Assembly: GCA_003568945.1 (NCBI GenBank)
Contig: BDIP01000035.1
Span: forward strand, 1-40,191
Direction of reading: 5' to 3'
DNA: 40,191 bases
Source of the DNA: Kipferlia bialata
Lineage: Eukaryota
In this document: positions 71 to 40,146 of the stretch, in pieces
How positions within the stretch are numbered: position 1 is the first letter of the stretch
How the letters are laid out: each line of letters starts with the position of its first letter
Translations under genes and position numbers: made by a program
The notes under the pieces: generated by a model
Seen by the model: the letters and a program-made list of their open reading frames with translations, nothing else
Database searches by the model: none
Told to the model about the DNA's origin: nothing

Positions 71-1808
71 GCATTCACGCCCCTGCCTTCACCTATCTGT
101 GTGTGGGTGGGTCTGGTGTCGATGCCCCCCTGTCCGTGGGTCTATCAGTGCAGGACATAGACCAGGCTGCTAAGAAGATGGATACAGTCCTCAGGGTAAG
201 TGTACTATATCATAGTATATGATGTATATGTATGTCTGTTTTCTATATGTCTGTACAGGACATATGCCGCAGACACCCTAGAAGATGGATGCAGTGTTAA
301 GGGTATGGATTGACTGAAGTATGTTCACAGAAGTATACAGTTCCCTTCTAACCTCCCAGGACCTTGTTGGCTCCTGCAAGGCCTGGGATGCCACTGTGCC
401 TATCAAGAGATACCCCGATGCAGTGCTGTCCATAGCACGGACACTGGCCATTGTATTGGGTACGTGTATGGTTTAGTATATATATATATATCGAGTGTAT
501 GTATATATGTATCAAGAGATACCCAGATGCAGTGCTGTCCATAGCACAGGATATTGTGCTAGGTGCATATTATAGTATATTGTTGCATGTGGGTGTATAG
601 AGTCTCCTTCTATCGCATAGCTAGGACACTGGCCATTGTGCTAGGTATAGGAGATAGTGTAGTATATTAGAGTACACACATGTATGCACTCTGGCTCCAT
701 CCCTCTCTCTTACCCCAGGTGTTGAGATGCCCGCCCCCCTACTACATATCCATAGCGTATCATCATCCCAAATCCATGACAGATGTATATGTATATCAGT
801 TCTCTATATAAGTACCTCACCCCAGGTGTAGAGATGCCCCCCTCCTACTACCTGTCTGGGTGTGAGACCACCAGACTGCTGGCCAGGATGGACCCACTGC
901 ACAGGGACCATGTGGAGGTATATAGTGTATATACTATATGTATATGCTATACAGATATACTGTCTATTCATATACTATATATGTATTGGCCAGGATGGAC
1001 CCACTGCACAGGGACCATGTGGAGGTGGGTATAGTGAGTATAATATAGTGTATTCTGTGTATATCATGTAGGGAGTGTATGTATACTCTATCGGAGAGAG
1101 AGAGAGAGATAGTGAGCAAGGATGGATCCACAGCACAAGGACTGTGAGGGGGTATACTGTATACTCTATAGTGTTTACTATATATATATAGTGACATTCC
1201 CTCCCCTCACCCAGGCCGAGTCCCGCATTCTGTCTGCCGCTGCACTGGACCCTGAGACACAGGACATGCCATACAGGGCACTGGAGACTATTAGGTGTGT
1301 GTTATTGTGTATATATAGTGTAGATAGTATATAGATATACACTCTGTCTAGAGACACAGGACATGCCATACAGGGCACTGGAGACAATTAGGTGTGTATA
1401 TATATATTATAGTGTGTATAAGACTATATGGTATATATATAGATAGTGTGTCGTGTATTGATATACACTCTGTCTAGAGGAACAGGACATGCCATACAGG
1501 GCACTGGAGACTATAAGGTGTGTATATATGTGTATGTATAGATAGATAGATAGATATATAGATGGTACAGAGACACAGGACATGCCGTACAGGGCACTGG
1601 AGACTATAAGGTGTGTATATGTATATATGAATGGATGGTATATCGTGATATATATGTATGTCTAGAGACACAGGACATGCCATTCAGGGCATTAGAGACT
1701 ATTAGGCATGGTGTATCTGATACCTTCTACATTACTTTACTAACCAGCTATGTATATACTAACCCCCCCCAGGCTCCAGCCCGACCAGAGGCAGACCTCT
1801 CTCTCTCT

Positions 1809-1839
<31 letters not shown>

Positions 1840-3791
1840 GCCATATGTATGTGTGTATATATTTATATGCGTATATACTAACCCCTCTAGGCTCCAGCCC
1901 GACCAGAGGCAGACCTCTCTCTCTATATATATACATATACACATATCCCATAAATATGTTTGTGTATATATATATATATGCGTGTGCACTAACCCCCAGG
2001 CTGCAGCCCGACCAGAGACAGACCCTGATGCGTGCTGTTGTGTTCATATACCCAGACCCCTTGGTGTCGCCATTCCTCAGGTACTTGGGTATATTCAAGT
2101 AATAGATGAATATTGTAAATATCGGCATGTGTATTATTTACTTTATGTATATATATATATACCCTAACCCCAGACCCTCTCTTGCCACATATGGCACAGC
2201 TGTCACCAGAAGGCAGCTAGAGGGTATCATGCTGGTGCTAGTGACCAGTATGGTGGACAAGCTGACACACGGCAATGAGGATGAGGTATATATATGTATT
2301 GGATATTCATGTACCCATGTGTGTGCAGTGACTGGTAATGGGGGGGTCCTTTCATATGTACATCCCTCCATTGTATGCTATCCCCTCACCCCCAGCACTC
2401 CTCTAGCGCTCTCTCCACCTTGCGTACATACGTGGCCAACATAGTATGTGGACTCAGAGGGGCAGACTTGGAGGTACAGGATACATATGTGTATGCCAAT
2501 ACTCTACATAGATACTATATATATATACTACTATGTATGCGTCTCTCACCCCCCAGGTGGTTGAGGCCTTTAGAGAGCTACTGGTCAGGTTCAGATTTGG
2601 GGGCAGGGACTTAGCCATACCCCCTCTCGACAAGACATTCAGCCAGCACATAGGTATGTATATATATGTATATATGTTCACAAATATGTGCAAGTTTTAG
2701 ATTAGCAATAGGGCCATCTCACCCTCAGGCTACTCGTCTGGTGCCCCTACTAGTCAGGCCCTGCTACCTGCTGAGCAGTCACACGACACGGCACACAGGT
2801 ATATACATGTGTAGTATATATACTATTATTAGTAATATGTATATTGCATACTAAAGCATATATACCTGCTGAGCAGTCACACGACACGGCACACAGGTAT
2901 ACACATGTATATTATATATACTACTATTAATATGTATATTGCATACTAAAGCATATATACCTGCGGAGCAGTCACACGACACGGCCCACAGGTAGGAGTA
3001 TAGTGTACATTCACCCAGATACCCACTCTCTACTCCATATCTGAATATATCTGTTTATATATATGTAGTCTCCTCACATCCGTGTACTCATCCCAGACTG
3101 CTGTGCCTCCTCCACCTGGACTGGACCCTTGTGTCTGCACCCTTATGGACAGACTCAGTCACCCAGACACTGCTGTCATACGCAGACAGGTATGGTATCA
3201 ATGTATATGTATAGAGAGAAAGATATATATAGATAGGTATATATGCAGAGAGGTCACCCAGACACCGCTGTCATACGCTGACAGGTAGGTGGTAATTTCA
3301 CAATCTCATAAACTGGACACTCTTCCTACTCATTGTATTACGTTGTGTATTTGGTTTTACTATAGCCATGACACCCCCCCCCCCTAACCTCAGCGAGCAC
3401 CAGCCGACCTGTGGTGTCTCCACCCTGGGCCCTCTGTCCCAGACGCCAACAGAGACAGAGAGACAGGGGAGGGATAGGGCACCTAGCACAGACAGACAGA
3501 CATCTAGGGCACACACCACTGGAGGTAGGATACATATATATATACTGCAAATACACTAACTATGCTGTGAATATACTATTAAAGAGTTGTATATGGTGTG
3601 TGTGTATGCTACTGTCCTTTACCCCTCCAGGCAAGTCCGGTGACAGGGACAGAGAGAGAGAGAGAGGCAGTGACGGCCCCTCTGGTGACACTGGCTCCCT
3701 GGACACAGACACTCTGTCACAGGGGACTGACCCCTTAGAGTATCTAGCTGCTATGTGTCCAGTGCCCACTGCCGTGCAGGTATTGTTATAT

Positions 3792-3834
<43 letters not shown>

Positions 3835-6800
3835 TATATGTTACTATCTAACCATCTCTTAACCCAGGTCACCGCTGTTGTGTCCTCCCTGGCCCGGATA
3901 GTGAGTGATGCCGGACACACAATGTTCACAGAGCTCTACAGGTATCACTGTACATCCATGATACATACATAGACCTGCTCTCACCCCCCAGACAGGTCTA
4001 TGCCTCTGTCGAGCCCTCCCCCTCTGAGGCCCCCTCCCCCTCTCTGCACCACCCGATGGGTAGGCAGGTAGAGGCACAGGGGGAGGGGCAGGAGGCACTC
4101 TCACTCCAGCACAGGTATGTGTATATGTATGTCTATATGCAGTATTCCTTCATGGCGCAATATACATCTGACCCTCCCAGAATCCTTGCCAAGACTGTCA
4201 ACTACCTGACACCCAACTACCTGCAGCAGAGATGTGTACACAGGTACGGATGGATACTATCTATTCATATTATATTATTCATAGATGTAAATCTTTATGC
4301 ATGGAGATGTGTCAAGCTTCAAGTGATAGTTGACGAAGCATGTATGTATACATGACTATCACTCTCACTCCCCCCTCACCCCCCCAGACACAATGCCCTC
4401 GACACTCTCCTCGAGTGCCTGACCACTGTGCCTGCCCTGCCTACAGAGATGGACGTATTGACAGGGAGGTACGGGACAGTGCTTATAGTTATAGTTATAG
4501 AGCTATACATATGAGTACATGTATATGAGTGTATATGAGAGATGGACCTGCTCACAGGGAGGTACGGGAGGGTGTATATGTGTATATATATATATGAGTG
4601 AGTGCATAGACATGTCATATATGCTGGTCGCTTTGTACTTACCGCCTAGGCACGTGTATGTATAGTTATGTAACCTATATTTTTCCTCACCCCCCCAGGC
4701 ATGTCTATGAGCTCCAGGCTGCCTCCCCCCAGGCCGCTAGGCTGATCGTCAAGATGATAGGGGCTAGGGAGAGAGAGAGAGAGAGGCTGAGGGCAGAGAG
4801 GGAGAGAGAGGTCCAGAACGATAGTACCATGGACCTGTCCTCTATTGCCAGGGCATCTGTTACTCTATCAGAGGCAGAGAGGAAGAACATCAGGATATTG
4901 GAGGTACCTTGCTCTCTCGCTCTCTCTATATGTATATTCTAACACGTCATACTCTTGGAGCTCAACCATGCCCTGTATGATGTCTATCTCTTCTCTGTAT
5001 GAATGCTATAGTATACTGTATATAGCATCTTACCCCAGGAGCTTAAGCTTGCCCTGTACGATGTCCTAGATGGCCAGGACATGCCTGACGATGCAGTGGG
5101 GGCATGTCTGACAATGGAGGGGGAGGAGGCACTCATGAACAGGGAGACGCGGTACGGTAGATATAGTTTCATAAAGTATGAAGTATAATGAATTGTATAT
5201 TAGTGTCCATCTCTCTCTCACCCCGAGCCTTGCGCAGTACATGCGTGTATTAATTCATATATATATAGGGTAGTATACTACCCTACTCTCTCACCCCCAC
5301 TCTTAAATATATATACACACATATATATGTACATATATATACAGTACCCGTTACTCATCCTAGCCTTGCTCAGTACATGCGTGTGTGCGGCCACCCCCAC
5401 TCTGCCCAGCTGTTACTAACAGAGGGAGAGACACGGAGGGAGAGAGAGAGAGAGGCCAAGGTGCAGGCAGAGAAGGAGAGGGAGAGAGAGAAGGAGAGGG
5501 AGAAGGAGAGACTCGCAGCCGTGGAGGCCGAGACACAGCGAGAGAGAGAGAGGGAGAGAGAGCTGATGCGTGAGAGAGCCGGTTCCCTCTCCATCTCCCT
5601 TGACATCCCAGTCCCTCCCCCACCCTCCTCCGCCCTTAGCAATGTGTCTTCCACCTCTACATCCTCCACACTCCCTAGTATCACTCTCAGCCAGACACAA
5701 GGGTCTAACAGTGCTACTAAGGCTGAGGCTGAGGCAGAGGCTGAGGCTTCCTTGACCCCTAAGGAGAGAGAGAGAAGGGGAGACAGAGAGGCCATCAAGG
5801 CAATGACGAGGTAGGGTAGTAGACTGCATTTACCTATTCATATATTGCCATGGTTGTCTTACAGAAGGTACCAGCTCCAGATGTCCCTCCTTGGCGAGCA
5901 GCACCAGTGGCATGCCCTGTTCGACATTGCAAAGAGGTATACTTTACACACATAATTACACAAGGAGCTATTCCTGTCTTAGAGGTGGTTTTCTAGCATT
6001 GGCTATGTGTGTGTATTTGGGCATAGTTTAGTATTTATACCCAACCCCCCCCCCCCCATCCCCTCACCCCCAGGTGCAAGGCCGCCCTTGACAGCGGTGC
6101 CTTTGTTGTACCACCCCCCCAGGCTGACATGGTCACACACCTGTGGGGGGAGGTGGACAGGGTGGTGGAGGCATTGAGGAAGGGTGGGTTGCTNNNNNNN
6201 NNNNNNNNNNNNNNNNNNNNNNNNNNNNNNNNNNNNNNNNNNNNNNNNNNNNNNNNNNNNNNNNNNNNNNNNNNNNNNNNNNNNNNNNNNNNNNNNNNNN
6301 NNNNNNNNNNNNNNNNNNNNNNNNNNNNNNNNNNNNNNNNNNNNNNNNNNNNNNNNNNNNNNNNNNNNNNNNNNNNNNNNNNNNNNNNNNNNNNNNNNNN
6401 NNNNNNNNNNNNNNNNNNNNNNNNNNNNNNNNNNNNNNNNNNNNNNNNNNNNNNNNNNNNNNNNNNNNNNNNNNNNNNNNNNNNNNCTATATATGTGTGT
6501 ATTAGTGTAGTTATACATATATACCTGTGGGGGGAGGTGGATAGGGTGGTGGAGGCATTGAGAAAGGGTGAGTGTATAGTCACATCCACACTGCTCATCG
6601 ATTCCGAGAATGCTCTATATATACATGTGTACCCATAGTGTATGTGGATTCTCTCCTCCTCCTCCTCACCCCCCTAGGCACCAAGGTCAACCCCCGCACC
6701 CAATGTATGCTCTATCTCTCTCTCTCTCTCTCTCCTTCTCTCTCTCTCTCTATATATATATATATCCCCCTCACCCCATAGGCACCAAGGTCAACCCCCG

Positions 6801-8334
6801 CACCCCTGCCCTGGGCCAGTCAGATGACATGGGCATACTCAGTGTGATAGCCGCTACACCAGGTATGTATAATGGTATTTCTATATATGTGTATATACGC
6901 AGTGTATGTGTATCTAGTGGTTCAATGGGCATACTCAGCGTGATAGAAGCAACAGCACGTGGGCATACATGTATATATACCATTGGATATTTGAAGAGTG
7001 TCTATCTATCTGTATCTGTATGTATATGTGTATGTGTCTCTTACCCCCCAGCCGCCCCCCTGTCTGTGACTGAGGAGGAGGTTGAGCTGTCCAAGGGTCT
7101 AGTGCTCACGCTGGTACTGACCTCACCGGATATGGTGCTCAGTGCCATATGTCACAACTCGAGGTATGCAGAGGGAAATTGCATATAACTAAATTTGTAA
7201 TACACATTCACACATGTGTAACCGTATGAATGCATATGCCACAACCTAGGGTATATTTTCACACTATTCTATGTTATTCTACATTGCATTTATCTAAGAA
7301 TTGTTCTCTAATCATATATGCATGTATATGATAGATATGTATTTAACCCCCCTAGGATCATGGCCATCTTCCTCCCTGTCCTTGATTCTTATATAGGCGT
7401 GTTCAGTATTATATGTGTTCTATCCATCTCTAACCCCCTAGGATCATGGGCATCTTCCTACCCGTGCTTGAGGCTGCCAAGGCAACGGCACTGGCCGTGG
7501 CAGACGTGGCGGGGGTGCAGGTATATAGAAGTGTGTATACAATCTAACTATTATTATATATAGAGAGTATATGCTTATTTATGTATGGAGAGACAGAGTG
7601 ATCATGGGTAGTGTGAGCGTGGCTGGGTTGCAGATACCTTATGAGTATTTACATACTCCTATGGTCAGGCCCACTCTATGCTACATAGGGATGGCATGTA
7701 TATATGTGTTATGCCATGTATACTTTCATATGTCTATGTATATATATATATGTACATCTCTATATGCACTCTATTACTAACCCTCAGGCCCACTCCATCC
7801 TACATAGGGATAGCATGTATATATATTTTTATGCCATATATACTTTCATATCTCTATGTATATATCCATATTGATATCCTATGTACTTACACCTTGGCCC
7901 ACTCCATCCTGCACCGGGATGGCCTGGCCACTACTGTATATATATATATATACATCTCTATATACTCTCAATATCTCATTAACCCTCAGGCCCACTCCAT
8001 ATTACATAGGGATGGCCTGGCCACGGCTAGGGCCCACATTGCATCACTGAGGCACAGATCATCGACCAGGGACATACCCACTAAGCTGCTAGGTGGGTAG
8101 TAGTGGACTATATATGTATATATCTATATACATATACGGCCCTCACCCCCAGTGTACCAGCTCATGTTCATGCTACCTATCAATATGGTCCAGTATCATA
8201 TATGCATGTGTATTATCATATGTGTTAACCTCTAACCCCAGGTTACCAGTATGTATCATGTAGTTGTATTTACAATGTTCATTAACCCCAGTGTACCAGT
8301 TGATGTTCATGCTGGCCCCCATGGCCACCAGACA

Positions 8335-8367
<33 letters not shown>

Positions 8368-11300
8368 TTTATATGTATATGTATACATGTGCATTAGTAT
8401 TATATATATATATATTAATACTGATAGCTACCTACTGACCCCAGTCTATCAATTGATGTTCATGCTGGCCCCCATGGCCACCAGACTCACAGACATCGGC
8501 ACAGTGCTGTTGATGCTGAGGTGGGTATATTCCCTTGTACATGTATTTATACCATGTGCAATATACTATATTCTATATAGTTAGAATACGTTGTATAGTT
8601 TCAAGTATGTTACTGCATGATGACATATTACCCCCTCACCTCTCACCCCCTAGGGAGAAGCTCCTCGATGGCGTTGCCTCCTCTCTAGTGAATGGGTCGA
8701 GGAGGGCTAGAGTACTCACAATGGCGCAGATGGGTGAGGCTACACATATTACACTTCTACTCTAAATGTGTTTGTATTATATGTTAATGTATATATATAT
8801 TACTGACCCTTACCTCCAGCCCTTGAGGTAGCAGAGTGCTCCGTTGTCCTCTTACTCAAGGAGGAGGCAGCCAAGGAACTGACGGTACGGATTGTATATA
8901 TACAGTATATATACAGTATACATTAGTGTATGTATATATATATATAGATATGAATGTACTCAAGGAGGAGGCAGCCAAGGAACTCACGGTACGGTTGACA
9001 TCTATATACATATGTGTATAGTTATATATGTATATTCTATAGTTATCCTATATCATACTTACCGTATTTCATACCCTTCCCACCCCAATGACGTCAGGAT
9101 GCCCAGCAGAAGACCCGGCACTCCCCCTTCTACCTCCTCGAGTGTCTGTGTGCCATATGGGTGGCAAGGTACGTTCTCTCTCTCTATATATATATATGAA
9201 TTTGTATTCCTCTGCTTGTCTAACATTAATATATGTATATGTATATACTACTACTGCTGATACCTCTTCGAGTGTCTGTGTGCCATATGGGTGGCTAGGT
9301 ATGGGATATGTATATGTATATGAGTCTAAACACAGCTACTTATGTTGTATACAGTCTATTTGGAGCTGTGTGCCATATATGGGTGCCTAGGTACTCTCTC
9401 TCTCTCTCTCTCTCTCTAATTACATATCTGAACATATACATATATGTTACATATCCATATACCTCCTAACCGCCCAGGTCCCCCCAGGTCTGGGAGGCTG
9501 TGTCCACAGTTACTATGTATACATGCTCCCTCCTCTCATATATACATATATATGTGTGTACCTCTATCTCCATATACACACTCAATATAGGTCCCCCGAG
9601 GCCTGGGAGGATGTGTCCACTGTGTCCCAGCTGGTGGCATCTAGACGGATGATGCTCGCTGGGCTGGCAGACCAAGTGGGAGGTATGTTGTGTATATATA
9701 CAGACGATATGTAGAGGCATAATGCTATTGTATTGCAGTGCTCTCTATCAATTGACGATATCTGTCTTACCTCACCCCCAGGCCTTGGTCAGCAGGTCCT
9801 GAAGCACCAGAACCTGATCAGAATGATAGACCAGACAGGTGGGTAGAGATAGAGTACATATATAACGCAGCAATATAGTATATGCATGTATGAGTATTAT
9901 AGGAGTATGCACAGAATGATCGACCAGACGGGTATGTGCATCTATGTCTGTATATATGTATGTATAGTCATATCAGTATCATATGATACTCACTTACCAG
10001 CCGAGAACACCGTTGTGGACATGACCCTGTTGTATGTTCTATATATGGATGTATATATATGGTTATATGAATAACATGACCCTGTTGTATGTTCTATATA
10101 TGGATGTATATATATGGTTATATGAATATATACCTATAACTGTCTATCATACTCACCCCCCAGCCGAGAACACTGTTGTGCACATGACCAGACGGGCCAG
10201 GCACCTGGGGAGACCTCTCCTGGGGCTAGGTAGGGAGAGGGTATATGTGTGGAAATAATCACATATGCATATGTGTATGTATATATCTCTCCCTAACCCC
10301 AGGCATGGCCTACCGCAAGGGCACCGAGCTCAGGCACTACTGGAGCCACATTGGCTACATCATTGAGAGCAGCCTGTGCCACATGGCATGCGGCAGATAC
10401 GAGGTGTGTGTATGATATATACTGCTGTGTATTCTGTTATATACACAATCTACTCACCCCCAGACTGCCCTCTCTGTCCTAGTCTCCAATGACGTGACAG
10501 GGGATGGTAGAGTGGCATCAGTCATGCTCGCACAGACAAAGGTGTGTATGTGCACTGTTTACACTACAAATATTTTACCTAGTAAAGTGTAGTCTCTCGC
10601 CCCTAGAGCCGCATCCTCCCCGCCATGGGCCAGCACACTGTCCATTATTAATACTCTATATATATATATTATACAATGTAATACTTATAGTGAGTATTCA
10701 CCCCAGGGCCGCATCCTCTCTGCCATGGGCCAGCACACTGTGTATAATACTATCTATATATGTAAATATTGAATTATCAGTGTATTATGCTATCCTTACC
10801 TCAGGGCCGTATCCTGTCTGCCATGGGCCAGCACACCGAGGCCCAGCGGGTATTGGAGGGGGCAGTGGCTACAGCTAACGGGGCCAGTACAACGGTACGG
10901 ACAGTGCTGATACATCATGTATACCAGAATACATTTCATTGTACTCTACCCTTCTGCATATATATTTCTGTACATGTTTAAACTGTATTCACCCCAGGCC
11001 TGGCTCCACCTAGGCCAGTCCATGGTGCATGACCTGCACTCACCCTCCCGTACCCAGAGGGGCAGACTACCCACTGACGCTGAGGCCCAGGCCATACACG
11101 CATCATCCCTGTCTCTCGTGCACTCTCTCTTGTCTAGCTGTCTGTTAGGTGGGTAGTTAGTGTATCTGCATATAGTACTCACTACGTATTTATGTGTACA
11201 ATATTTCACAACCCCTTACCCCAGGCTGCCGCAGATACACCCTCCGTGGCGCCAGGATGGTGTGCTCTCTCCTCAGGGCTGTATATGCACCCCCATACCC

Positions 11301-13945
11301 CCTGACCCTGGGGGGGACAGCGGCCATGGTAGAGAGAGTGGGCGGGTACGGTAGTGTGTATATATCAGAGTAGTACATTTATCCTAATGGGGGGGAGGGC
11401 AAATAGTTGAGTCAGCCATACCACTAGTATATATACCAGATGGGTAGTCTGTTGTTGATCTGTCTAACCCCTCAGCTACGGTCTCCAGGCCCCTGATGCG
11501 AGTGGTGTTGTGAGGGACATGCCTGACCTGACAGGGGTAGTGCTGGCAGACGCTAGGTATAGAATGTAGATAGATATATATAAATTTAGCAACAACTTCC
11601 ATATACGATATGTATATTGGTCTGACAGGGGTTGTGCTGGCAGATGCTAGGTATAGGTATATACTATATTTATTCGATAACCCATTTCGGTTACTCTTCC
11701 AATGCCTCTCTCGCTCATTCTACCTTACCCCCAGACTCCTCCACCACCGCGTCCCCTTCCTCCTTGATAGGATCAGACACGTCTCTAGGATGGAGAGAGA
11801 GAGGCAGGAGGGAGAGGGAGAGAGACTGAGACAGGCCACGCAGAGTGGCATGCCTGCCAAGAGGGAGCAGTCATTGAGGCCATTAGTGGTGTATGCTGCA
11901 TCACTCGTACTGAGGTGGGTATCTCTCTCTCTCATTATACATATACATATAGATAGATAGGTATTTGTATTCATGGTTACTATATGGCCCTCTCACCCCT
12001 CAGGACCCTCTGCTCCGACGTCCCCCTCCCCCTGCACCTAGCTGTCTCTGTGCAGTACCATGCCCTACTCGCTGTGAAGGAGGAGAGAGAGAGAGAGACA
12101 GGAGCAGAGGGAGAGAGTGGGTCTCAGCCAATTACATCTGTCGATGTGCCCCCCTATGTGTCAATGGCTGTGGCCAAGTGTATGCACAAGGGTATGCATA
12201 TACATACACTGATACACACATATATATATGTATGTGTATCAACAGATACCTATTCGCATTGTACCTCACCCCTCACCCCAGGCCGTGACACTCTGTTCTC
12301 TGGCCTCCGTGTCTGTGTAGATGCATCTGCTGCACCCAACGCCTCTAACCAGGGGTCCATTGGATACACAGCGGCCATGTACCTCTACTGTGTAATGCAG
12401 GTGGGTATTTATGAACATATGAGTTTATATATGAATATTTGTGCACCTTATACTAATGTATATGTGTATCCTATATGGTTCTTCCATTTGGCCCTCTCAT
12501 TCTCTCTATCTCAGTGTATTTTTCCCTCACCCCAGGCCCTGCACCCCTCTCTGACCCATGCCCTCAGGTCTCTGGCTCAGTCTGTATCACACCTGGATGT
12601 GTCAGTGCTGCACTGGTGAGTATATGTATGTATATGCATATGCAGACACACTATATATATATATATATATGGATGGATACCAACTCATACATTTTGACAG
12701 AACTGTATCTAACCCCCAGGTGCCTATATGCTCTTGGTGAGTTGATCACTGTCCGTGGCACACCTCTTCCCCCACCTGGGCCAGAGAGAGAGAGAGAGCA
12801 GCAGAGAGAGGCACAGTGTGTGTCCCTTGTGTCACTGTGCTTCAGCCATGCAGAGACTGAGATGCAGGACAGGCTTAGTCAGATACCAGGTATTATTCAT
12901 ATACACCAGATAGTCACCTACATTCCCTACTCTTTGACCCCCCAGGCTCCTCCGATGCCCTGGCCGATTTCTCAGTCGCCAAGTTCTGTGCAGACAAGGC
13001 GGTGAAGACAGGTATGAATAGTGTAGGAGAACTGGATACTCTTTAACGTTTAGAGACAGTAATGGTACTGTTCTTTCCGTTCCTCCCTCCCACCCCAGGC
13101 CGTGGAGACTCGGATGGTGTCAGACAGCTGCTGTTGGCCAAGGCCACGATCAGGTGTGTATGTATGTACTCTCTCTTCTATCTCTCCCACTCTTTTGTCT
13201 GTAGTGTTGCACTATACGTATATGATTCCCTCCTCAACCCCCAGCCGCGTTGTGTCCTCCCTGCCCTGCTCCACCCCATCATTCTGCATAAGGGGTCTGG
13301 ACGCATTCCACGCTGCATGCTCACTGTCGACAGAGAGAGGCAGGGGTAGAGAGGCTAAGGGTACCCAGAGACTGTGTGATAGGACGCACTGTCTACCTAC
13401 CCCCACCCTCACTGAGGCTGTGAGTGAGGTGGCCGTGCACGACATACCCAATGCGCAGAAGGTTGGTACTTTCACTTCTATATTTAACACAGTATAGCTG
13501 TGTCTTACATATGACATGTTCTGAAGATATTCAGGGGGTGCCTGTTTATATAGTAGTATTCTAGTCCTGACTCCCATATGATCTCCATCTGGTCCCGTGT
13601 ATTACATACCCTGTCTCACCCCCAGGAGGTTGGTGTCATTGCCAACGTCAAGACCACCCCATCCGTGGTGCCACAGGTGCGTAATAGCTATGCTGCATGT
13701 ATTCATAAGTTATATACACTGGTATGTATGTATTTGTTACTACACTGTACTCTTATATACATCCCCCCTCACCCCCTAGGGCGATGCCAAGATGCCCCAT
13801 GCCCCCTCCATGTGTGTGCCTGAGGTGTCACTCCTAGGCATAGTCCATGGGAGTGCTAAGATAGAGACATCCGGCCATGGCATACCTGTGATAGGGTGCA
13901 GGTACATTAGTATGTATTGTATATGGTAATTACTTGTCTGCCTAG

Positions 13946-13984
<39 letters not shown>

Positions 13985-15457
13985 CTCAGGATGGCCACCT
14001 CTCAGTCTGCCCCCAGGCACTGCCGCATCATCACCCTACCCCACGCCCTGCCCACTAGTGACAGTACCACTACTATGGATGAGAGTGACGCCACTGCCAT
14101 TGGAGTACGCACTGCCCTGACCGCCTATGACTCCGGTGTCTCTGTGGATGCACTCTCTCTGGGCCAGAGGTTCAGAGACACTGTATCTGCCCACACCCGT
14201 ATGGATGCCAATATTGCCAAGAGAGAGGGGCCACAGGACCTGTTCCCCACCACCAGTGGGTACATGGCACTCACACCTGACGCTCTGGTGAGTATTTCTA
14301 TGATAGCAGATACATTGTCATATATGTGTAGTTTCTTATAGTATGTCTCACCCCTCTCCCTCTGACCCCCCAGATCTGTCTAGAGCCCATCGACACACAC
14401 TACCAGGTCCCCCTGTCTGAGTGTCTATCCGGCATAGAGATGGCCGTTCCCCTGTCACCCCCCATGGGAGGCATGTCCATGTTCCCCTTGCCCTCTATGG
14501 GTATGGGCAGTGGACAGCACAGTGGGGACATCACTATGCTAGGGAGTGCCAGTGGTGGGGAGGGAGAGGGAAGGGAGGAGGACAACTCTGATCTGTGCGG
14601 TCTGGACAGGGCTATACTGCAGAGACACAGTGATGTGCACACAACAGCAGAGATGGGAAGGAGGGAGGGAGAGAGACCCAGAGAGTACACATTCACTGAG
14701 ACCTCTAGTCAGCTGCTGGATGAGACATTTGCCACAAGGTATGATCCTACTACTACCACTCATATACATATACAGTGTATACCCTATCCATATATACCCC
14801 CCCCCTCTCACCCCTAGGCATGCCTCTGGTGGTCACACCCACCTGGCCCTGTCGTCTCTAGGCAGGGGTCTAGGCCATGCTCTGGTGACAGAGGCTGTGG
14901 TGGGTATGTGTGCAAGTGGCGCCGTAACACCCACACACACACCCACACCCCACACCGATATCATGTCCTGTGGGGTGTCGCTATCTAGTGGCAAGGTGTC
15001 TACGCTGGGTAGGGTGCGTACTGTACTAGCACCCCCACCCGCTGCATCGGTCACAGCACCACAGGCACACAAGACACTGCCGGACCCAGCTGTCAATGCT
15101 CTGCCCCCTATCCCTGCGCCTCTCCTATCAGCCCTACCCCCCTCTCTCGTCTATGGACCATTGGCTGTGGGGGTGGGTGTGGCGGCACATGCCTGCAAGG
15201 CTGTCAGTGGGCTGGAGGACACCCTCACTTTACTAGAGACAGAGAGAGAGGCACTGTGCCCCCCTACAACCGGGGCTGGGGGTATGAATGCAGGGGAGAG
15301 GTGCTGTGCCGCACTGGCTGCTATAGGCAGTCTCTCCCCATCTGTTGTCAGACCCCATGTGCCTGAGACAGGTGATGGGGATGGTAGTGCATACCCTAGC
15401 TGTGGGGCCCTGGTGGCTCTGGAGGACAGCGTCAATAGGGGTAGAAGGTGGGAGTAG
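71..15457 (+). CDS. Multi-exon gene (about 50 exons here, 5' end upstream of the window): divergent TRRAP/Tra1-like PIKK-family pseudokinase (helical solenoid, FAT, degenerate kinase, FATC-like end)
   Basis: Hand splicing at GT..CTNACCCCAG gives a continuous frame, e.g. exons 71-195, 360-459, 826-917, 1215-1294, 2000-2080, 2174-2285 and last exon 14818-15457 (TAG). Motifs resemble TRRAP/Tra1 as I recall it, in the right order: YLTPNYLQQRCVHRHNALDTLLECL (cf. LLSKDYH..Q...RPNVVQALLEG), YQLQMSLLGEQHQWHALFDIAK (cf. QW.AL.D/E), RRARHLGRP, HRVPFLLDRI (cf. IPQLL), SLSSGKV, LVYGPLAVGVGVAAHAC (cf. GVSGPLTASMIAVARC). No database search was run. Confidence 0.65.
1254..1710 (+). repeat. Exon 3' end plus donor repeated five times (ETQDMPYRALETIR|gt): one working copy and four echoes
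   Basis: GAGACACAGGACATGCCATACAGGGCACTGGAGACTATTAG|GT-like units end at 1294, 1391, 1517, 1610 and 1705, separated by TA-rich spacers. Confidence 0.95.
1989..1999 (+). promoter_or_regulatory. Example of the fused branch-point/3' splice-site motif CT(A/C/T/G)ACCCC(C)AG used by most introns here
   Basis: ctaacccccag; the same motif is at 61-70 (cttaccccag), 348-359, about 1205-1214 and dozens of other acceptors on both strands. Confidence 0.8.
2763..2995 (+). repeat. Recent tandem triplication of exon end plus donor, with near-identical intron spacers
   Basis: TACCTGC(T/G)GAGCAGTCACACGACACGGC(A/C)CACAG|GTA occurs three times; two spacers share tatgtatattgcatactaaagcatatata. Confidence 0.95.
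6194..6486. other. Assembly gap (N run) inside an intron of the TRRAP-like gene
   Basis: The Ns are flanked by two copies of the same exon end (HLWGEVDRVVEALRK|gt), the likely cause of the break. Confidence 0.97.
14818..15457 (+). CDS. Terminal exon of the TRRAP-like gene (degenerate PIKK C-lobe and FATC-like tail)
   Basis: Acceptor ctcacccctag ends at 14817. The frame is open to TAG 15455-15457 and matches the 3' part of ORF 14546..15457. There is no DRH..N or DFG motif. Confidence 0.7.
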
Positions 15458-15649
15458 ACAGAATGGATGCTCCCACATGAATAGATATAGTATTCAACAC
15501 TTGCTCGTCTGTCATTTATAGGTCTATACATGTATGTGTCTGTATGTGGTAAGAAAGGGACGCCCTGCCAAGGCTAGAATTTAGCTCGGTGGGTCATACC
15601 ATATAACTGTGAAAAGAGAAAGCTGGCTGGGTCTAACCCAGACCAGACC

Positions 15650-16501
15650 CTATACATGGCACACCTTCAACACAAATGCCCTTTTGGAGTAGTCTGTTAT
15701 GACTAGAACACTGTCACTACTAAGGACACAGACCCTATACACCCTCTCGCTCCTGGAAATACCCAATACACTTGCCACAAGTCCAAGGTCCACACTCTCC
15801 CCGGATACCCTCTCATGCAGTCTCACAACCTGTCTGTATCCCGTTGATATCTCCATTAGGACCCTATCTAGAGGGAGTAGGGTTCCTAGGGCCTCTCCCT
15901 CTCTGAGGGTCTCAGTCACAGTGCTACCCTCTCTTAGGCCGCACAGCCCACTCTCCCCATACCAATACCACTCTTCAGCCCCTTTCACCAGGATGTAGGT
16001 CTCAGTACGAGGGAGAAGGTCGGTGCATTCACTCCACTCTCTTGTCTCTGTATTGTAGAAAACGGTCGTGGTTGGGTATCCAAGTGGCTCTCGGAACCAC
16101 AGACTCTTCTCGACGACTCCTGAGGCACGTTCATCTATGATTCGTCTAGACTGCTCGTAGACGAGAGTTTCAACCAGCCTCCATGTGTGTGTGTCTAGCG
16201 ACAGCGCCCAGAGTGCTATTTTGTCGGTATAGAGAGGGACCTCCTTGGCATATACATCACCACCCACACGGCCAATGGGGGAAAGATTGCCGGCTGGGCA
16301 CCACACCATCTCTTTATGAATCGTGTAGTCACTGCGGATGGTGATTATGACCGCCACGTATCTACCACTAGTCAAGTGTCTTCCAATCCCAATTGCTTGG
16401 TTCTGACCTAGGCTGTGGAGTTTCATATCGGGTACATCGTGGCCCCAGAGCTTGAGAGGTATCTCTGTAGCCAGGAGCTGAATTTGAGGCTCCAGTGACA
16501 T
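15650..16501 (-). CDS. Intronless hypothetical protein (about 283 aa), possibly kelch-like beta-propeller; paralog of 17338-18213
   Basis: Long ORF free of microsatellites. The start at MSLEPQIQ was chosen because it aligns with MTLEPLIQ in the neighbour. Shared motifs: PIGR, VYAK, WALSLDT.TWR..ETL, LWFR, YNTETREWSE, GAEEWYWY, SKRAFVL.V. YNTETREW resembles the kelch YDP.T..W strand. Confidence 0.8.
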   Translation of the reverse strand: MSLEPQIQLLATEIPLKLWGHDVPDMKLHSLGQNQAIGIGRHLTSGRYVAVIITIRSDYTIHKEMVWCPAGNLSPIGRVGGDVYAKEVPLYTDKIALWALSLDTHTWRLVETLVYEQSRRIIDERASGVVEKSLWFREPLGYPTTTVFYNTETREWSECTDLLPRTETYILVKGAEEWYWYGESGLCGLREGSTVTETLREGEALGTLLPLDRVLMEISTGYRQVVRLHERVSGESVDLGLVASVLGISRSERVYRVCVLSSDSVLVITDYSKRAFVLKVCHV

Positions 16502-17337
16502 ATGTGCGGTATAGAAGCAGGGGATGAAGGACACAAATAGCTCACACGAGAGTATCACTAATTGAGGGTTTCATAGTGATACTTTCATTCCAAGCAGAAG
16601 TCATGTACACTTATATGACACTAAGTTAGTGTGCATGACATTTTACGTTATGTCTCAGCGTCTACGCGTCTCAGCGTCTCATTAGTCTACCCACGCCATG
16701 CAAGTAGGAGGGCCATTATTACCCAGGCACTGTTGTATTGAAAGACGATGGCATTGAGACGCAGCCCATTCAACACATTCAATGTGACATTAGTTGACCT
16801 TGATGTTGCGCTTGAACCCAAAAGTGTGATTCACACTGTGAATGGTACATTTGTAACCTCAACTAGACAGAATCTCCTAGCTGGCAGACATTCACCCCAT
16901 ATACAAGTCTGATACTGGTCTGAGTCAGACCGTAGCATCACCTGTATCAACCATCCAATATGTCGATGAGTTTGAAAACTCTATCTGATATCTCAATGCA
17001 TATGATGTATATGATGTATGGGATGTATATGATAGAGCATTACTGAGGTGATGGTCTTCTTACTGCACATGTTGTTTTGCATCAGCGTTAACCGGGGTAG
17101 ATGGAGGGAGTAGGCAGACTCTGCAGCGGAGAGAGCATATGTTCCAACAAGAATACATATAGTGATCATACTTTGAATGTTGTTCTCTGTTCAACAGCAT
17201 CTGTTGTATATGCAAAGCATTCAAGTTCATAGATCCAGCTAAATGCGTCGTACTCTAATGATCAGAAATTCTCTGATTTATGAAGTCTCAGCCTGAGACT
17301 CAGGGAGTATCACAATGTGAAGATATGCTGGCTGAAT

Positions 17338-18213
17338 CTAACCTAGACTAGACCCTATACGTGACACTTCCAGTACAAATGCCCTTTTGGAGTGTGTTAT
17401 CACTAGGACCCTGTCATCACCGAGCACACATGCAGTTAGGACCCTCTCTTTTGTGGATGAGCCCAAAACACTCCCGATGGGTCCAAGGTCCAGGCACTCA
17501 CCAGATATCCTATCATGCACTCTTAAAACCGGCCTGGAGCAATTGGGTATCTCCAGAAGTGTCCTTTCTAAAGGGAGGAGTATTCTGGGAAGCCCGTCGT
17601 GATGGTTATTGTCTGTGAGTGTCTCAGCCTCGTCGTGTTCTGTTCTCTGACTGTACAGGCGTTGCTGAGGACCTCGTCCCGCGTACCAGTACCACTCCTC
17701 TGCCCCAGTTACTACACGATGCAGACACTCACGTGGGTGGCCGGCCACCTCACTCCACTCTCTGGTCTCTGTGTTGTAGAGCATAGTGACATGATCGACT
17801 CGGAACCATAGACACTCGTCAATGATGCCTCTGCCGTTTAGATGTCGCATCCGTTCAGTCTGGTCTGTCAGAGTCTCCAGGACCCTCCAAGTCTCTGTGT
17901 CTAGAGACAGAGCCCATATAGCCCCTTGGCAAACCCCAGGTGGGGCAACCGTCTTAGCATATACCACACCCCATATACGACCTATAGGGTGGCACTGCGG
18001 CTTTGGACACATTAGAGGGTGTATATCGACTGTGTCGTCACTCTGTAGAGTCACTATGAATGGGAAGAGTGAACTACTAGTGACTGGGAACCCGGTAGGT
18101 AACCTAACACACAGTGCCTGGCTGTGACCTATGGGGTGGAGGTACATTGACCATTCAAACACACTCCAGCTTATCTCTGTAGCGTGTATCTGGATAAGAG
18201 GCTCTAGTGTCAT
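17338..18213 (-). CDS. Intronless hypothetical protein (about 291 aa), possibly kelch-like beta-propeller; paralog of 15650-16501
   Basis: Long ORF colinear with its paralog over the full length. ATG at 18213 (MTLEPLIQIHATEI), TAG at 17338-17340. Confidence 0.8.
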   Translation of the reverse strand: MTLEPLIQIHATEISWSVFEWSMYLHPIGHSQALCVRLPTGFPVTSSSLFPFIVTLQSDDTVDIHPLMCPKPQCHPIGRIWGVVYAKTVAPPGVCQGAIWALSLDTETWRVLETLTDQTERMRHLNGRGIIDECLWFRVDHVTMLYNTETREWSEVAGHPRECLHRVVTGAEEWYWYAGRGPQQRLYSQRTEHDEAETLTDNNHHDGLPRILLPLERTLLEIPNCSRPVLRVHDRISGECLDLGPIGSVLGSSTKERVLTACVLGDDRVLVITHSKRAFVLEVSRIGSSLG

Positions 18214-18329
18214 ATTATGTGAAGTAGAGGGTAAAGAGTGGAGTAGTACAGTAATGGTTCGTACTGATTCCATACTGTTGGATGAGGACTTCACTTCAAC
18301 AAAGATGGTTTCTCATGTACTGAGTGAGG

Positions 18330-18403
18330 GCCTCAGAGTCTGAGGCAGACTGACACTGTCAGTCAATTGCTGTACTCATTAGTGGTGAGTCACCACTAAT
18401 GAG
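18330..18403. promoter_or_regulatory. Three adjacent perfect palindromes upstream of the 18213 ATG
   Basis: GCCTCAGA-g-TCTGAGGC (18330-18346), GACTGACA-c-TGTCAGTC (18348-18364) and CTCATTAGTGGTGA-g-TCACCACTAATGAG (18375-18403). The palindromes are certain; a regulatory role is a guess. Confidence 0.45.
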
Positions 18404-18599
18404 GACTGTAGAGTAAACGAATTGCTGTAGACGGCCTCAGATGACCCAAGGTGCGAGGCATATTTGATTGCTACAGGAACACTGTTTAAGTGATTGGTTC
18501 TGATATGTCTATGTGTTTATCTGATACGATGGATAATTCCTGCCGCATACATATGTTGCATCTATTGTTGCATCTATTGTCTAGTGTCTATCGTTGCAT

Positions 18600-18714
18600 C
18601 TAGCAGTTGAGGGTGAGTGCGCTCTCTCTCCTCCTGCCCCTAGTGGCTGCACTCAGCCGACCCCTAACGGGCAGAATGCCCCAGTTGCCAGGGTTGGTGT
18701 GCAGCAGCACATAC
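18600..18714 (-). CDS. Terminal exon of the USP7-like gene
   Basis: Acceptor ctcaaccccag, then (R)YVLLHTNPGNWGILPVRGRLSAATRGRRESALTLNC-TAG, in phase with exon 18966-19058. Confidence 0.75.
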
Positions 18715-21700: not shown

Positions 21701-24700
21701 AGCCACCATGTATCTGAGTGTTAGTGTATATTATGAATACATGCATAAACATACAGTAGCATTAGTATACTAGTGACAGGGCCAGAAGAGTCATCATGTA
21801 CCTGAGAGTGAGTAAATGCATATACATAGTGACGTATTGATATTATGAATAACCACTCACACTGATACTTGAGTCAAAACGATGTTCATAGGGTGTGAGA
21901 TAATACATACGGTGCATACTTAGTGCACATGACATAAACGAACCTGATGCTCTGCGTGTCATACTCATCCACACTCTCTCCCTCTCCCTCTCCCTCTCCC
22001 TCTCTCTGTCTCTTCCTCAACAGACCATCCTGTCTCAGTCTCTCAATGACACCAGCGTACAGATGCCTCAGCCTGGCGTCCTTTCTATGGTTAGACAAAT
22101 ATACATCAATACTATACCGTCATAACACACATAGTACATATACTCTCATCTCTATGACTGGATGTCTCAGTCTGGCGTCCATCCTATGGTTAGAGTCATG
22201 TAAATATAGCGGTGTATGTACAGAATATTGGGAATTATGACTATATGTATACATACCTAGGCACCAGCACTGTGATGTCACCAATGGGTAGAGGAAATAT
22301 ATATATATATATATGAATATATATATCTACCACACCATACCTAGGCACCAGCACTGTGATGTCACCAATGGGTAGAGGAATATATACAACTACAGGTATA
22401 TATACATGTACGAATGAATAAGTCCATCCATATATACCTAGGCACCAGCACTGTGATATCCCCGATCGGCAAGGGATAAGATATACTTACACTAGTATAG
22501 GTATATATATAAATACATATCTATATATATATCTGTATATCGATATGCATACCTCGGTACCAGCACCGTGATGTCTCTGATGGGTAGGGGCTCCTCTCCA
22601 AACCATACAACACGCACTGGGAGTGAGAAGACAGGTATACAGGAAGACACTCTAAAAATATATAAGTACATTGTATCTATTAGTATTTATCCAGAATATT
22701 TCATGTCATCAATAGTGTGTATACATACATACCTGGCGTGGTGTGTGTGTACACGGCCGGGGGCACGGTGAGTCTGCGATAGAACAGACGGTACGAGCCA
22801 TAGGAGCCCCTGGGGTTAAGGATAAAAATATGTAGTTAATCTATCCAACATGGGTGGTCGCATCCCCAACCTGAAGAAGGTAGCGAGTGTGACTGGTGGC
22901 TTCACCCAAAACATGGTCTCTCTCTGAATATACACGCACATAAATATGAGTGAATATATACTCCTACCTGAGGAACGTGGCGAGTGTGACTGGTGCCCTC
23001 TTCCCCCACACCCCCTCCTCTGTCCTATCCAGGGTGTCTAGAGGCATGTCTGATGCCTGTACAGATCTGTACTGGGATATAGGGGTGTACTTGGTCATGC
23101 CGTAGGTGTCCTGAGGGTGAGACATCGTATATATATGTATATATATACTATCAAAATATATATGTATATATAATCGCCACATTATGTATGTGGTCATCCC
23201 ATAGGTGTCCTGAGAAGTATCAGCATCGGCGTATGACAGAGAGATAGAAATACATTAGTATAGCAGTATGGTAACACACACTCTCACACACACATATATA
23301 TAGTGCACTTGGTCATGTCATAGGTGTCCTGGGGGTGAGATATTATAGATATCTCTATATTATATTGTATATAGACATTCCATATATATATTGTATTTGG
23401 TCATACCATAGGTGTCGTGGGGGTGAGACTACAGAATGTAGGTATATCACATAATATATAGGCTATATTTATATATTGTGCATATAGATGTAATATAGTG
23501 TAGTATTTGATATGGGGGTGTACTTGGTCATGCCATACGTGTCCTGGGGTGAGATATCAGCCGATGGTATAGAGAATGTGCATATATACACATCTCCATA
23601 TTTGGTTGCGTGAAGAGTATCAATATAGACACACATATGTATTGACATTTACATATACACCCATGTGGATAGATATCTCTACCCACCTGGCTGAGTGTGT
23701 AGAGTATGACTGGGTCTGCTGTGTCAGGGAGAGCATCGGGCCTGGGGGTGAGGACACAGGTATCTCTGCATACATATGATACATCTAAGAAGGGGAGAAA
23801 ACATCTATCAAGTATGTACCAAGTATATACTTAGTATATGAACCTCAGGTATCGGCTCAAGGGTGGAGGAAAATAGCGTTATGTGTATGAATAGAGTATA
23901 TACCTCATGCACGTTGCCGTGGCTGCAGGGGGGATGAGGTGTATATAGGATAAAGCACATGCTCAGTATATACACACATATATATATATAGTATAATAAC
24001 AGTATACACACCTCATGCACGTAGATGTGTCCCTCTGCATGTATGGTGGTATCTCTATATCCTCAGGTACAGTCAGGGCACCAGGTAGAGTGGCACCTGG
24101 GTAAGAGAGATACCCTATATAACACTATCTGTATATACATATAGCAATGTATATATAGCTAGTAGAGTATAGGTACAGTCAGGGAGAGTGCTACCTGGGT
24201 GAGATGGGCTATGGGTAACGATATAAGGAGTATAGTGGTTCATGTACTCGATCTACAACATGGCACTGGCAGCACTTCCAAAGAATACAGTATATAGTCA
24301 TTTGGCAGATACTTTCTATATCCTAAGTACCGTATTGTAAAACATACACATTGAAAATACATATCTCCAAACTGTGTACGGCTACACCCCTACCTATCTG
24401 GCTGCAAAGGTCGGCTGTGACACTAGGCACTGTATCACTCCTAAGGGGTCAGAGAAGCATGACTAAGCGTCATAGTACGTATACATATGTATGATATATG
24501 GACCATATATATACATTTCCATATATATACATTTCCATATATATACATTTCCATATTGAATGCGTACTCAGTAAATGAATATACCTCAGCGCTGACACCG
24601 TGAGCGTCTAGAAATACATGATACTTATATATATATAAACACACTAACATAATGTATAGTATATATATATCTCTGTGTGTATATACCTCAGAGCAGACAC

Positions 24701-38850: not shown

Positions 38851-40146
38851 AAGATACCTCTCTCGAATGTCCACGTTGACCTGACCGGTCTCTTCCTCTG
38901 TATCCACTGTAAGGAGGGGTCGGATATGTCGGAGACAGTCAGACGGTCATCGCTGGGGTAAGATAATACTACATATATATACACATATATATATATATAG
39001 AGAGAGAGGGGGGGGGGGAGGGGGTCGGATATGTCAGAGACAGTCAGGCGGTCGTCGCTGGGGTAAGGTCTCAAAACTATTGAGTCAAAAAGCTCACAGA
39101 TACTGAATAAAGTGATACGACAACAGAAGTATACTACATATACGTATCACAGGTAGTAACTAGTAGTGAATAAGGAATATATATACCTTACAGGACTGCT
39201 AGCAATTGATGCCGACACAACAGAAGCTGTCATCTCTGGGTATATATATATGTATGTAGACTCACTATAAATATACATATACTTGTATACTAATGTACCT
39301 CACGGGGCTAGATGCTATTGATGCCGATACCACAGATGCCGTCATCTCTCAGTATATCTACTTATATTTACATATACTAGATATGTATAGATAGTCAACA
39401 TTATCAGTAGCGTATACCTCACAGGACTAGATGCAATAGATGCCGACACAACAGAAGCTGTCATCTCTGGGTATATATATATATATATAAACATACATAT
39501 ATATATATATAATCCCATAGCATAGACAGTAACTAATAGAGTATACCTGACAGGACTAGATGCCATTGATGCCGACACGACCGATGCCGTCATCTCTGGG
39601 TCTGGGGACAGGTCTCGGACAGTGTTGTACAGATCACACAGGAGGAACTCGACCTAGGGGTAAGACTAGCATATGTAGTATCTATAGTATTCCTCCTCCC
39701 CCACCCCTCACTGTCACTCTCCTTGACACTATGCTCAGGTATATACAGACACAATTTTCTCTTTATAGAGTGTCTATATGACTATTTATATATATATATA
39801 TATATATATATCATACACCATACCTCTGCTCTTCTCCCCCATGTGTCTGTGTCACTCTCCTTGACACTGGGCACTATGCTCAGGTATATGTTCCTCTTAC
39901 CACTGATGACCAGACGCCACTTGGTCTGGGGGGTGAGAGAGATGGAGAGAGAGAAACAAGGAAACAAAGATACATAGACAGATAGATAGAGGGAGTCCTG
40001 CCACTGATGACCATGTGATAGAAAGATGCATATGCACTATAGAAGAGGTATGAATGCACACACTAGTGCATACCTCATTGAGTGTGAATGTGGGCGAGTA
40101 TATGTGGTCAGGGGCAGACACGTAGTGGGGGATGCGCCACACAAAC
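18600..40146 (-). CDS. USP7: Multi-exon USP7/UBP15-like ubiquitin carboxyl-terminal hydrolase (MATH, USP catalytic domain, UBL region, C-terminal tail); 5' end lies beyond the window
   Basis: Spliced peptide contains MATH-like FVWRIPHY..DHIYSPTFTLNE|TKWRLVI..IYLSI, Cys box GYIGLFNQ|GATCYMNSLLQSM, ALELQRLFYRM, QLTAAFGW...AFQQHDVGELMHILFEKIE, LPPVMFMTLKR|F, KITSRLEYP, His box YSLYSVLVHHGGT|GGGHYYAFVRP, WMCFNDT|RV, TAYMLCYV, UBL-like TGDILCAQ and tail YVLLHTNP...RESALTLNC* (cf. USP7 EKAIKIHN). Exon phases were continuous wherever checked. Confidence 0.85.
23081..23550 (-). repeat. Acceptor plus exon 5' end (DTYGMTKYTP) repeated five times
   Basis: cag|GACACCTAYGGNATGACCAAG-like units lie near 23110 (working), 23209, 23328, 23416 and 23543. 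Confidence 0.95.
31284..32180 (-). CDS. USP His-box exons
   Basis: SYSLYSVLVHHGGT|GGGHYYAFVRPMPEFDGRA|VSTAHYQAQYRDADWMCFNDTR; the catalytic His and Asn/Asp motifs are present. Confidence 0.85.
36018..36195. repeat. Intronic minisatellite/microsatellite (ATATATACC-type) containing a short N run
   Basis: Repeated ataccatatatat units; Ns near 36092. Confidence 0.85.
36745..37332 (-). CDS. USP Cys-box exons (about 37208-37332 and 36745-36803)
   Basis: RHGYIGLFNQ | GATCYMNSLLQSMHHLSGLR, joined by a phase-0 intron. Confidence 0.9.
39185..39601 (-). repeat. Exon 3' end plus donor (PEMTASVVSAS[M/I]ASSPVR|gt) repeated four times
   Basis: Four copies of about 53 nt, spaced roughly 110-130 nt apart. 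Confidence 0.95.
39823..40146 (-). CDS. Two exons (40074-40146 and about 39823-39924) encoding the first strands of the MATH/TRAF domain
   Basis: FVWRIPHYVSAPDHIYSPTFTLNE followed by TKWRLVISGKRNIYLSIVPS matches the F.W.I...S.....S..F....WRL....YLS MATH pattern. Confidence 0.75.

Follow-up and report, generated by a model that had tools for sequence, protein, structure and literature searches.

Two intron-rich genes in the window

The window, by which we mean the whole 40,191-nt stretch of Kipferlia bialata DNA analysed here, carries two intron-rich genes. Exons have 58% G+C and are separated by AT-rich introns whose spacers have 28% G+C. An automatic gene finder spliced many copies of exon edges (hereafter echoes) into its models, and its exon sets were replaced by hand curation.

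71-15457, plus strand: gene A, 3' part; 51 curated exons, 2178 codons without a stop, 33 counted echoes; transcript contig of 15,492 nt
19180-40146, minus strand: gene B, a USP7-like ubiquitin hydrolase; 54 curated exons, 67 counted echoes

About 8.9 kb of the gene A transcript contig lie upstream of the window, and the protein has approximately 5,000 residues. Pfam returned no match for any of the four gene A exons tried; over ten single exons taken from both genes it gave one weak UCH match and none for the other nine. A protein search with gene A exon 10998-11147 (proteins of 89-2000 aa) brought up 19 candidates, none of which held up.

Gene B matches USP7 chains (E=5.7e-47) and agrees in 1747 of 1790 residues with the NCBI K. 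bialata protein KIPB_000315, which is colinear with human USP7 and contains no echo peptides. Exon 22970-23110 of this minus-strand gene is 100% identical to KIPB_000315 (one of three candidates, and the species' own annotation), and no other strain was among the protein matches to that exon. The sole internal difference between the two models is a pair of exons that NCBI omits (32180-32108 and 31807-31752, minus strand). These carry the His-box region of the catalytic domain, and the annotated protein thus looks incomplete.

The roughly 3 kb between the convergent gene ends (15460-18600) are, by eye, free of the TA-rich intron texture. Two similar stretches, at approximately 15640-16300 and 17340-18000, are possibly mobile-element remnants, again judged by eye. 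Runs of N occur at 6195-6486 and 36092-36097, in introns of both genes. The first could hide an exon; the frame is continuous without one.

Introns carry copies of exon edges

Each exon was compared, without gaps, with the introns on either side of it. Of the 139 local matches, 39 were dropped as not edge-anchored or scoring below 13. The remaining 100 echoes are anchored at an exon edge with a score of at least 13 and derive from 67 edges of 51 of the 105 exons. This count covers the 40 kb window and the two curated genes; it probably includes some chance matches, and older echoes escape it. Exon starts are copied by 39 echoes, which sit upstream, and exon ends by 61, which sit downstream. 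In all 15 introns where both occur, exon-end echoes come before exon-start echoes. Echoes are 14-62 nt long (about 30 nt), independent of exon length (rho 0.015), and cover a median 38% of the exon with one splice site each. They recur at a unit spacing of 105 nt (median; quartiles 95-121 nt), and the spacers measure at least 45 nt in 99 of 100 cases. Several exon edges are accompanied by arrays:

1351-1705, plus strand: four echoes of the end of exon 1215-1294 that share one free end
23185-23543, minus strand: four exon-start echoes of exon 23110-22968
22257-22475, minus strand: three exon-end echoes, the nearest with 8 silent and 1 replacement differences
35859-36313, minus strand: four exon-end echoes in the USP7 catalytic-domain region
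39187-39472, minus strand: three exon-end echoes with 6-7 silent differences each

Introns that carry echoes are longer, at a median 328 nt (n=52) against 103 nt (n=51) for those without, and 17,948 of the 24,430 intron bases in the window belong to echo-bearing introns. Free ends lie within 3 nt of each other in 27 of 46 array pairs, against 22% at random. Echo length and spacer length are negatively related (rho -0.21, P=0.04), which weakly suggests a fixed copying tract.

The splice site itself is usually preserved. The AG or GT is kept in 90 of 100 echoes, and intact echo sites are as strong as the real ones (11.17 against 11.12 bits and 6.47 against 6.51 bits). Splicing at the inner site would cause a frameshift or stop in 82 of the 90 intact echoes and leave eight readable in frame. 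The partner site that an exon would need is mostly missing: none of the 39 exon-start echoes has a good donor near its free end, and an acceptor-like site at a lenient threshold is found in 6 of 61 exon-end echoes, compared with 0 of 61 controls. The reading of echoes as former exons was rejected for want of these partner sites.

The DNA around the echoes mostly does not resemble the DNA around the exons. Ranked by likeness to the flank of the exon itself, no more than 5 of the 39 upstream and 8 of the 61 downstream echo flanks reach the top 5%, and 5 of 46 spacer pairs exceed the 99th percentile of likeness. Eleven of the 100 echoes are identical to the exon, and a few units, such as those at 2863 and 2958, are plainly recent in-place copies with alignable flanks; ordinary tandem duplication therefore operates here too.

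RNA and DNA contigs at one locus

The region 7430-8333 in gene A was compared with contigs from two runs, X1 (DNA) and X2. The RNA label of X2 is a guess, but the run has GT..AG joints that are missing in X1. The two runs are one sample seen as contigs, which drop rare splice forms, and the skipping of echoes in RNA is known at this one locus.

7356-7385, plus strand: echo of the start of exon 24; AG intact, 3 silent and 1 replacement differences
7442-7520, plus strand: working upstream exon, gene A exon 24; 0 differences from the RNA contig
7521-7989, plus strand: GT..AG intron of 469 nt holding three echoes; RNA joint in X2, not in X1
7669-7698, plus strand: third and farthest echo of the start of exon 7990; AG kept, 2 silent and 1 replacement differences, skipped by the RNA contig
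7788-7817, plus strand: second echo of the same exon start; branch and AG acceptor intact, 2 silent and 1 replacement differences, skipped by the RNA contig
7897-7932, plus strand: focal echo of the same exon start, seen in the sequence and not covered by the RNA contig; TG acceptor, 6 silent and 0 replacement differences
7990-8092, plus strand: working exon, gene A exon 25; 0 differences from the RNA contig
8153-8175, plus strand: far echo of the start of exon 8445 (VYQLMFML); AG intact, 6 silent and 0 replacement differences over the peptide
8292-8333, plus strand: near echo of the start of exon 8445 (VYQLMFML); AG intact, 3 silent and 0 replacement differences over 42 nt
8445-8520, plus strand: working exon, gene A exon 26; assigned from the reading frame, with indirect RNA support

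An earlier note on this DNA had singled out the focal echo, and its coordinates, codons and six base differences from exon 7990-8025 are exactly right: all six are silent, and both copies encode the same twelve residues. It was also right that the acceptor lacks AG, since the echo is preceded by ...caccttg, with TG where AG is expected. The note does not list the two further echoes of that exon start, 7669 and 7788. The two VYQLMFML echoes were said to behave in the same way, which is true of their silent-only differences; unlike the focal echo, however, both keep their AG. The far one at 8153 scores 12 and is among the matches left out of the count of 100.

The X2 contig joins 7520 directly to 7990 with the letters of the exon, at depth 96, skipping 469 nt between GT and AG. 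Before 7440, the letters of its loose end are those that close exon 7052-7163; echo 7356 is thus skipped as well. Beyond 8092 the contig is three letters off echo 8292, the same number by which exon 8445 differs from that echo. From exon 8445 to the stop, the model has 3680 nt and the contig beyond 8092 has 3674 nt. With the position of the contig end uncertain, this agreement is weakly consistent with no echo being included downstream. The RNA contig at 7430-8333 thus shows no echo inclusion at a depth of 96, in contigs that drop rare forms.

The earlier note had attributed the skipping of the focal echo to its dead acceptor. Echoes 7356, 7669 and 7788 have an intact AG and are skipped too, and the dead acceptor of the focal echo is therefore incidental. 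Across the window, AG is kept in 35 of 39 upstream echoes and GT in 55 of 61 downstream echoes.

The note had also named two results that would speak against its reading, the echo being included in mRNA or belonging to another haplotype or locus, and neither turned up in these contigs. Run X1, which contains 0.98 of sampled words from 6500-12000, covers 7430-8329 with a single, independently assembled contig (depth 435, 0 differences); the window may itself derive from the reads of X1, which is thus not independent. At 82% likeness it holds no second version of the exons within 7430-8333. These contigs also bear on the idea that divergent haplotypes or paralogues were concatenated in tandem by the assembler. 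The allele-like divergence pattern and the N gaps in the window would suit such an artefact, but it should leave the copies on separate contigs, and at this locus one contig spans the whole array with no other contig on the exons, in a run that may be the source of the window. We regard the artefact as scarcely credible.

Differences between echoes and exons are mostly silent

The focal echo offers 9.3 silent and 26.7 replacement sites. Six silent changes out of six have P=3.0e-4 under neutral decay and P=4.9e-3 if the exon alone is protected. Under the window's own average ratio the probability is 0.089, which makes the focal echo an ordinary member of a window-wide class. The finding is that class and not the single echo.

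Over the 100 echoes, comparison with the exon gives 193 silent differences at 644 sites (pS 0.300) and 109 replacement differences at 2092 sites (pN 0.052), a pN/pS of 0.17 (cluster bootstrap 0.13-0.23). With one echo per array the ratio is 0.15 (P=9e-16 against 0.5). Echoes compared with each other give 0.19 (46 pairs). Changes private to the echo comprise 34 silent and 26 replacement changes, a ratio of 0.23, and those private to the exon 17 silent and 2 replacement changes. The ratio is 0.155 for the 73 echoes scoring at least 20 and 0.25 for the 27 below, 0.18 without the focal arrays, and 0.17 without the two exons that NCBI lacks.

The silent bias follows the genetic code and not codon position. 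At third positions, transversions affect 68 of 465 fourfold and 11 of 356 twofold sites; at first positions, 20 of 104 degenerate sites are changed and 46 of 808 non-degenerate ones. In frame, 173 of 262 changed codons keep their residue, compared with 20 of 270 and 29 of 267 in the shifted frames. Position-dependent mutability as the source of the bias is ruled out by these degeneracy classes.

According to the earlier note, the silent differences date from a time when both copies were coding. The excess of silent changes over all 100 echoes supports this, and the bias is present in the echo-echo and echo-private comparisons as well. Copies made in place on one chromosome cannot both be coding. 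The divergence calls for either a second template, from an allele or lineage, or a different regime of rates.

A simpler account is tandem duplication across a splice site and neutral decay of the copy, with the exon alone protected. Such duplication is a known process, described for human F7 intron 7 (PMC1557585), and the account fits recent units such as 2863/2958. Since an in-place copy is non-coding from the moment it separates, the account predicts a ratio of about 0.5 overall, about 1 for echo-private changes, and alignable flanks. The observed ratios are 0.17 and 0.23, and most flanks are unalignable. In 480 simulated runs of in-place duplication with exon-only protection (using the score cut and not end-trimming), pN/pS was 0.38-0.51 with a minimum of 0.27; the observed value lies below this minimum, and the scenario is rejected. 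As the sole cause, simple duplication is refuted by the ratio, the simulations and the flanks together, and we consider it highly improbable as the main explanation.

A ratio of 0.17 is typical of coding DNA, and the echoes could therefore be alternative or mutually exclusive exons under direct selection on the protein, in use now or until recently. The eight echoes readable in frame and the six acceptor-like sites would fit this reading. Against it, the RNA contig skips every echo at the tested locus, use of the inner site would disrupt the frame in the great majority of cases, and good donors are absent from the exon-start echoes. KIPB_000315 has no echo peptides and is colinear with human USP7, yet the exons of the catalytic domain give the same ratio as the rest (0.18). 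We judge current or recent use to be very unlikely.

Replacement differences, not silent ones, increase along arrays

In 23 arrays, pN is 12.5/519 in the copy nearest the exon and 36.5/487 in the farthest (Fisher P=1.7e-4), whereas pS is 0.31 in both. Paired by array, replacements are more numerous in the farthest copy in 14 arrays and in the nearest in 3 (P=0.01). By array rank, pS is flat (0.31, 0.28, 0.36, 0.36) while pN triples, and the splice site is intact in 22 of 23 nearest copies. The two kinds of change are also uncoupled among echoes in general: pS is 0.274 in the 44 echoes with 0 replacements and 0.294 in the 29 with two or more (rho -0.015). The replacements look random, with no conservative bias (BLOSUM mean -0.43 against -0.59, P=0.24, 61 changes).

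Two fits set in-place parking against a model in which parked copies start with a silent offset (0.28-0.36), and the offset model is better by about 49 and 36 log units. Over a model of slowly changing echoes its lead is only 2.5-3 log units in one of them and 4-4.4 in the second. In that rival model, echoes are in-place duplicates, parked in succession, that act as slow snapshots of earlier states of the exon, silent change in working exons running about 7-8 times as fast as change in parked copies. It fits nearly as well over all echoes (negative log-likelihood 300.6 against 297.7-298.2), explains the silent differences between echoes without a second allele, and is in keeping with the 17 silent and 2 replacement changes private to the exon. 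It should, however, let pS rise with age, and pS stays flat while pN triples; in the rank fit it is the poorer by the larger of the two differences. It also has the echoes remain slow while the intron DNA touching them turns unalignable. We consider slow snapshots unlikely.

Selection could also act indirectly. If deletion or conversion often promoted an echo to a working exon, damaged echoes would be purged, and the nearest copies would show the lowest pN and the best-kept splice sites, as they do. The equal strength of echo and real sites fits as well. However, promotion this frequent would erase silent differences, and the nearest copies still have a pS of 0.31; nor do the replacements show the conservative bias that selection would leave. 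Frequent promotion and high pS could hold together only with very high population diversity, which would lead back to divergent alleles. Indirect selection thus appears to us distinctly improbable.

Echoes as parked pieces of other alleles

On balance we lean, with slightly better than even confidence, towards the view that the echoes are pieces of other working alleles left in introns by recombination repair, from donor alleles that we infer. Two working alleles or orthologues would look much like this, with the protein and the splice dinucleotides conserved, the silent sites diverged and the introns beyond alignment. The small, random load of replacements would then be decay after parking. 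What the data themselves establish is the anatomy of the echoes, their skipping at one locus, the protein-level signature and the gradient of age along arrays; the donor alleles, the repair route and the rule of splice-site choice belong to the model.

Alleles in the population would differ at about 30% of silent sites, and this model predicts the offset of 0.28-0.36 between alleles. Their introns would be unalignable, and pairing would be limited to exons. After a break near an exon edge, one-sided repair could take the other allele as template and copy about 100 nt of it, through the splice site and into its intron. The other side would be end-joined, so that the resident exon edge and its splice site become parked in the intron, one unit away. 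Unequal exchange between an exon edge and an echo on different haplotypes could extend this to arrays with a shared free end and place fresh pieces of alleles next to the exon. Selection would retain only those products that form no new exon and lie an intron's length from the real site. The spliceosome may choose sites that flank a whole exon, a rule suggested by one locus and the gene models, and intact echo sites would then be ignored. The parked copy would from then on decay neutrally.

Direct searches for the second allele have returned none. The X1 contigs at 7430-8333 have been described above, P0001 is a one-member cluster with no second allele there, and a metagenome scan with exon 13991-14287 produced 598 pattern matches, of which 0 were confirmed. 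The recombination machinery that the model calls for is listed for this species: Supplementary Data 2 of PMC8516963 records PolQ (polymerase theta), four Dmc1 recombinases, Spo11 and Hap2 in K. bialata, and records it as lacking Ku70. The same paper reports no NHEJ in metamonads, and its section 10 states that sex has not been directly observed in them, which counts against the model.

A broader claim, to which we give tentative and somewhat less than even credence, is that Kipferlia introns are a running archive of the alleles of the species, with the newest copy beside the exon. Hyperdiverse haplotypes would pair only in exons, their recombination would routinely leave the displaced exon edge in the intron, most intron DNA would have been built in this way, and splicing would proceed by exon definition. 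The introns would then record both diversity and cryptic sex.

Relation to known systems

The closest parallel is the 37-bp VNTR of human F7 intron 7, where tandem units span the exon-intron boundary, extra intact sites are silent, and the most upstream donor is used (PMC1557585). The 100 anchored copies in Kipferlia likewise span boundaries, and the extra sites are intact in 90 of them and go unused (skipping seen at one locus). In F7, however, there is one locus with identical pseudo-sites, whereas Kipferlia has 67 exon edges in 40 kb, on both donor and acceptor sides, with unalignable spacers and a protein-level signature. An F7-type unit would copy the adjoining DNA whole, and here likeness of that kind is limited to 13 of 100 flanks and 5 of 46 spacer pairs. 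Changes in a dead duplicate that decays neutrally would be blind to the reading frame; those in the echoes are not, at 0.23 echo-private and 0.19 echo-echo.

Intron gain by tandem duplication is similar in that a short local duplication includes splice-site sequence and leaves the protein unchanged (PMC3443670). That process makes new introns, whereas the echoes lengthen existing ones and are not simple copies of adjoining DNA. They lie inside single introns, as indicated by the RNA joint and the gene models.

Mutually exclusive tandem exons are neighbouring copies with a low dN/dS, but they are whole exons that have both splice sites and appear in mRNA. Kipferlia echoes share the low ratio; they are partial, carry one splice site and are skipped by the RNA contig at one locus. 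The second site that such exons possess is found in 0 of 39 cases for donors and 6 of 61 for lenient acceptors.

The repair route resembles one-sided invasion or SDSA with polymerase-theta end joining, which copies donor sequence and leaves one homologous and one non-homologous junction (PMC9299229). Template switching by MMBIR also copies donor sequence; in PMC4888836 the term stands in a reference title. One-sided repair is known from transgenes and rearrangements (PMC9299229, PMC4888836), and it is we who infer the link to allelic exon edges in introns.

The K. bialata genome is reported to contain 124,912 introns (PMC5874029). The main text of that paper does not contain the strings 'duplicat', 'ploid', 'polymorph' or 'heterozyg'. 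A literature search, mostly of openly available papers, turned up no description of exon-edge echoes in Kipferlia.

If the allele model is true, a single genome of a free-living metamonad testifies to recombination between divergent haplotypes, although sex has not been observed in this group, and allelic diversity could be estimated from that genome with no sampling of populations. The model would further add a route of intron growth for which we found no earlier description. Real and echo sites of equal strength, of which the former are used and the latter ignored, offer a natural test of site choice, in an organism with a reduced spliceosome (87 of 174 proteins found, PMC6679479). Even if the model fails, non-coding copies with a pN/pS of 0.17 require explaining.

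Irregular exon edges

Several places in both genes depart from the usual arrangement. In gene A, exons 9098 and 9591 are working but have weak acceptors, and the echo at 9478 upstream of the latter has a better acceptor motif than 9591 itself. A perfect two-copy 55-nt tandem repeat at 10019-10128 lies in an intron and begins inside an echo; it is either a recent in-place duplication or an assembly slip.

In gene B, three echoes at 31752-31430 (minus strand) keep an exon end that is in phase with the next exon, an end that the present exon seems to have lost. The exon ending near 31752 probably takes GTTGGA at 31751 as its donor, as though its former end had been lost by deletion. At about 31518 (minus strand), a short exon-start echo lies upstream of an exon-end remnant, the opposite of the usual order. 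Finally, 37416-37402 (minus strand) is either a degenerate exon-end echo below the score cut or possibly a 15-nt micro-exon, as the gene finder has it and the NCBI model does not.
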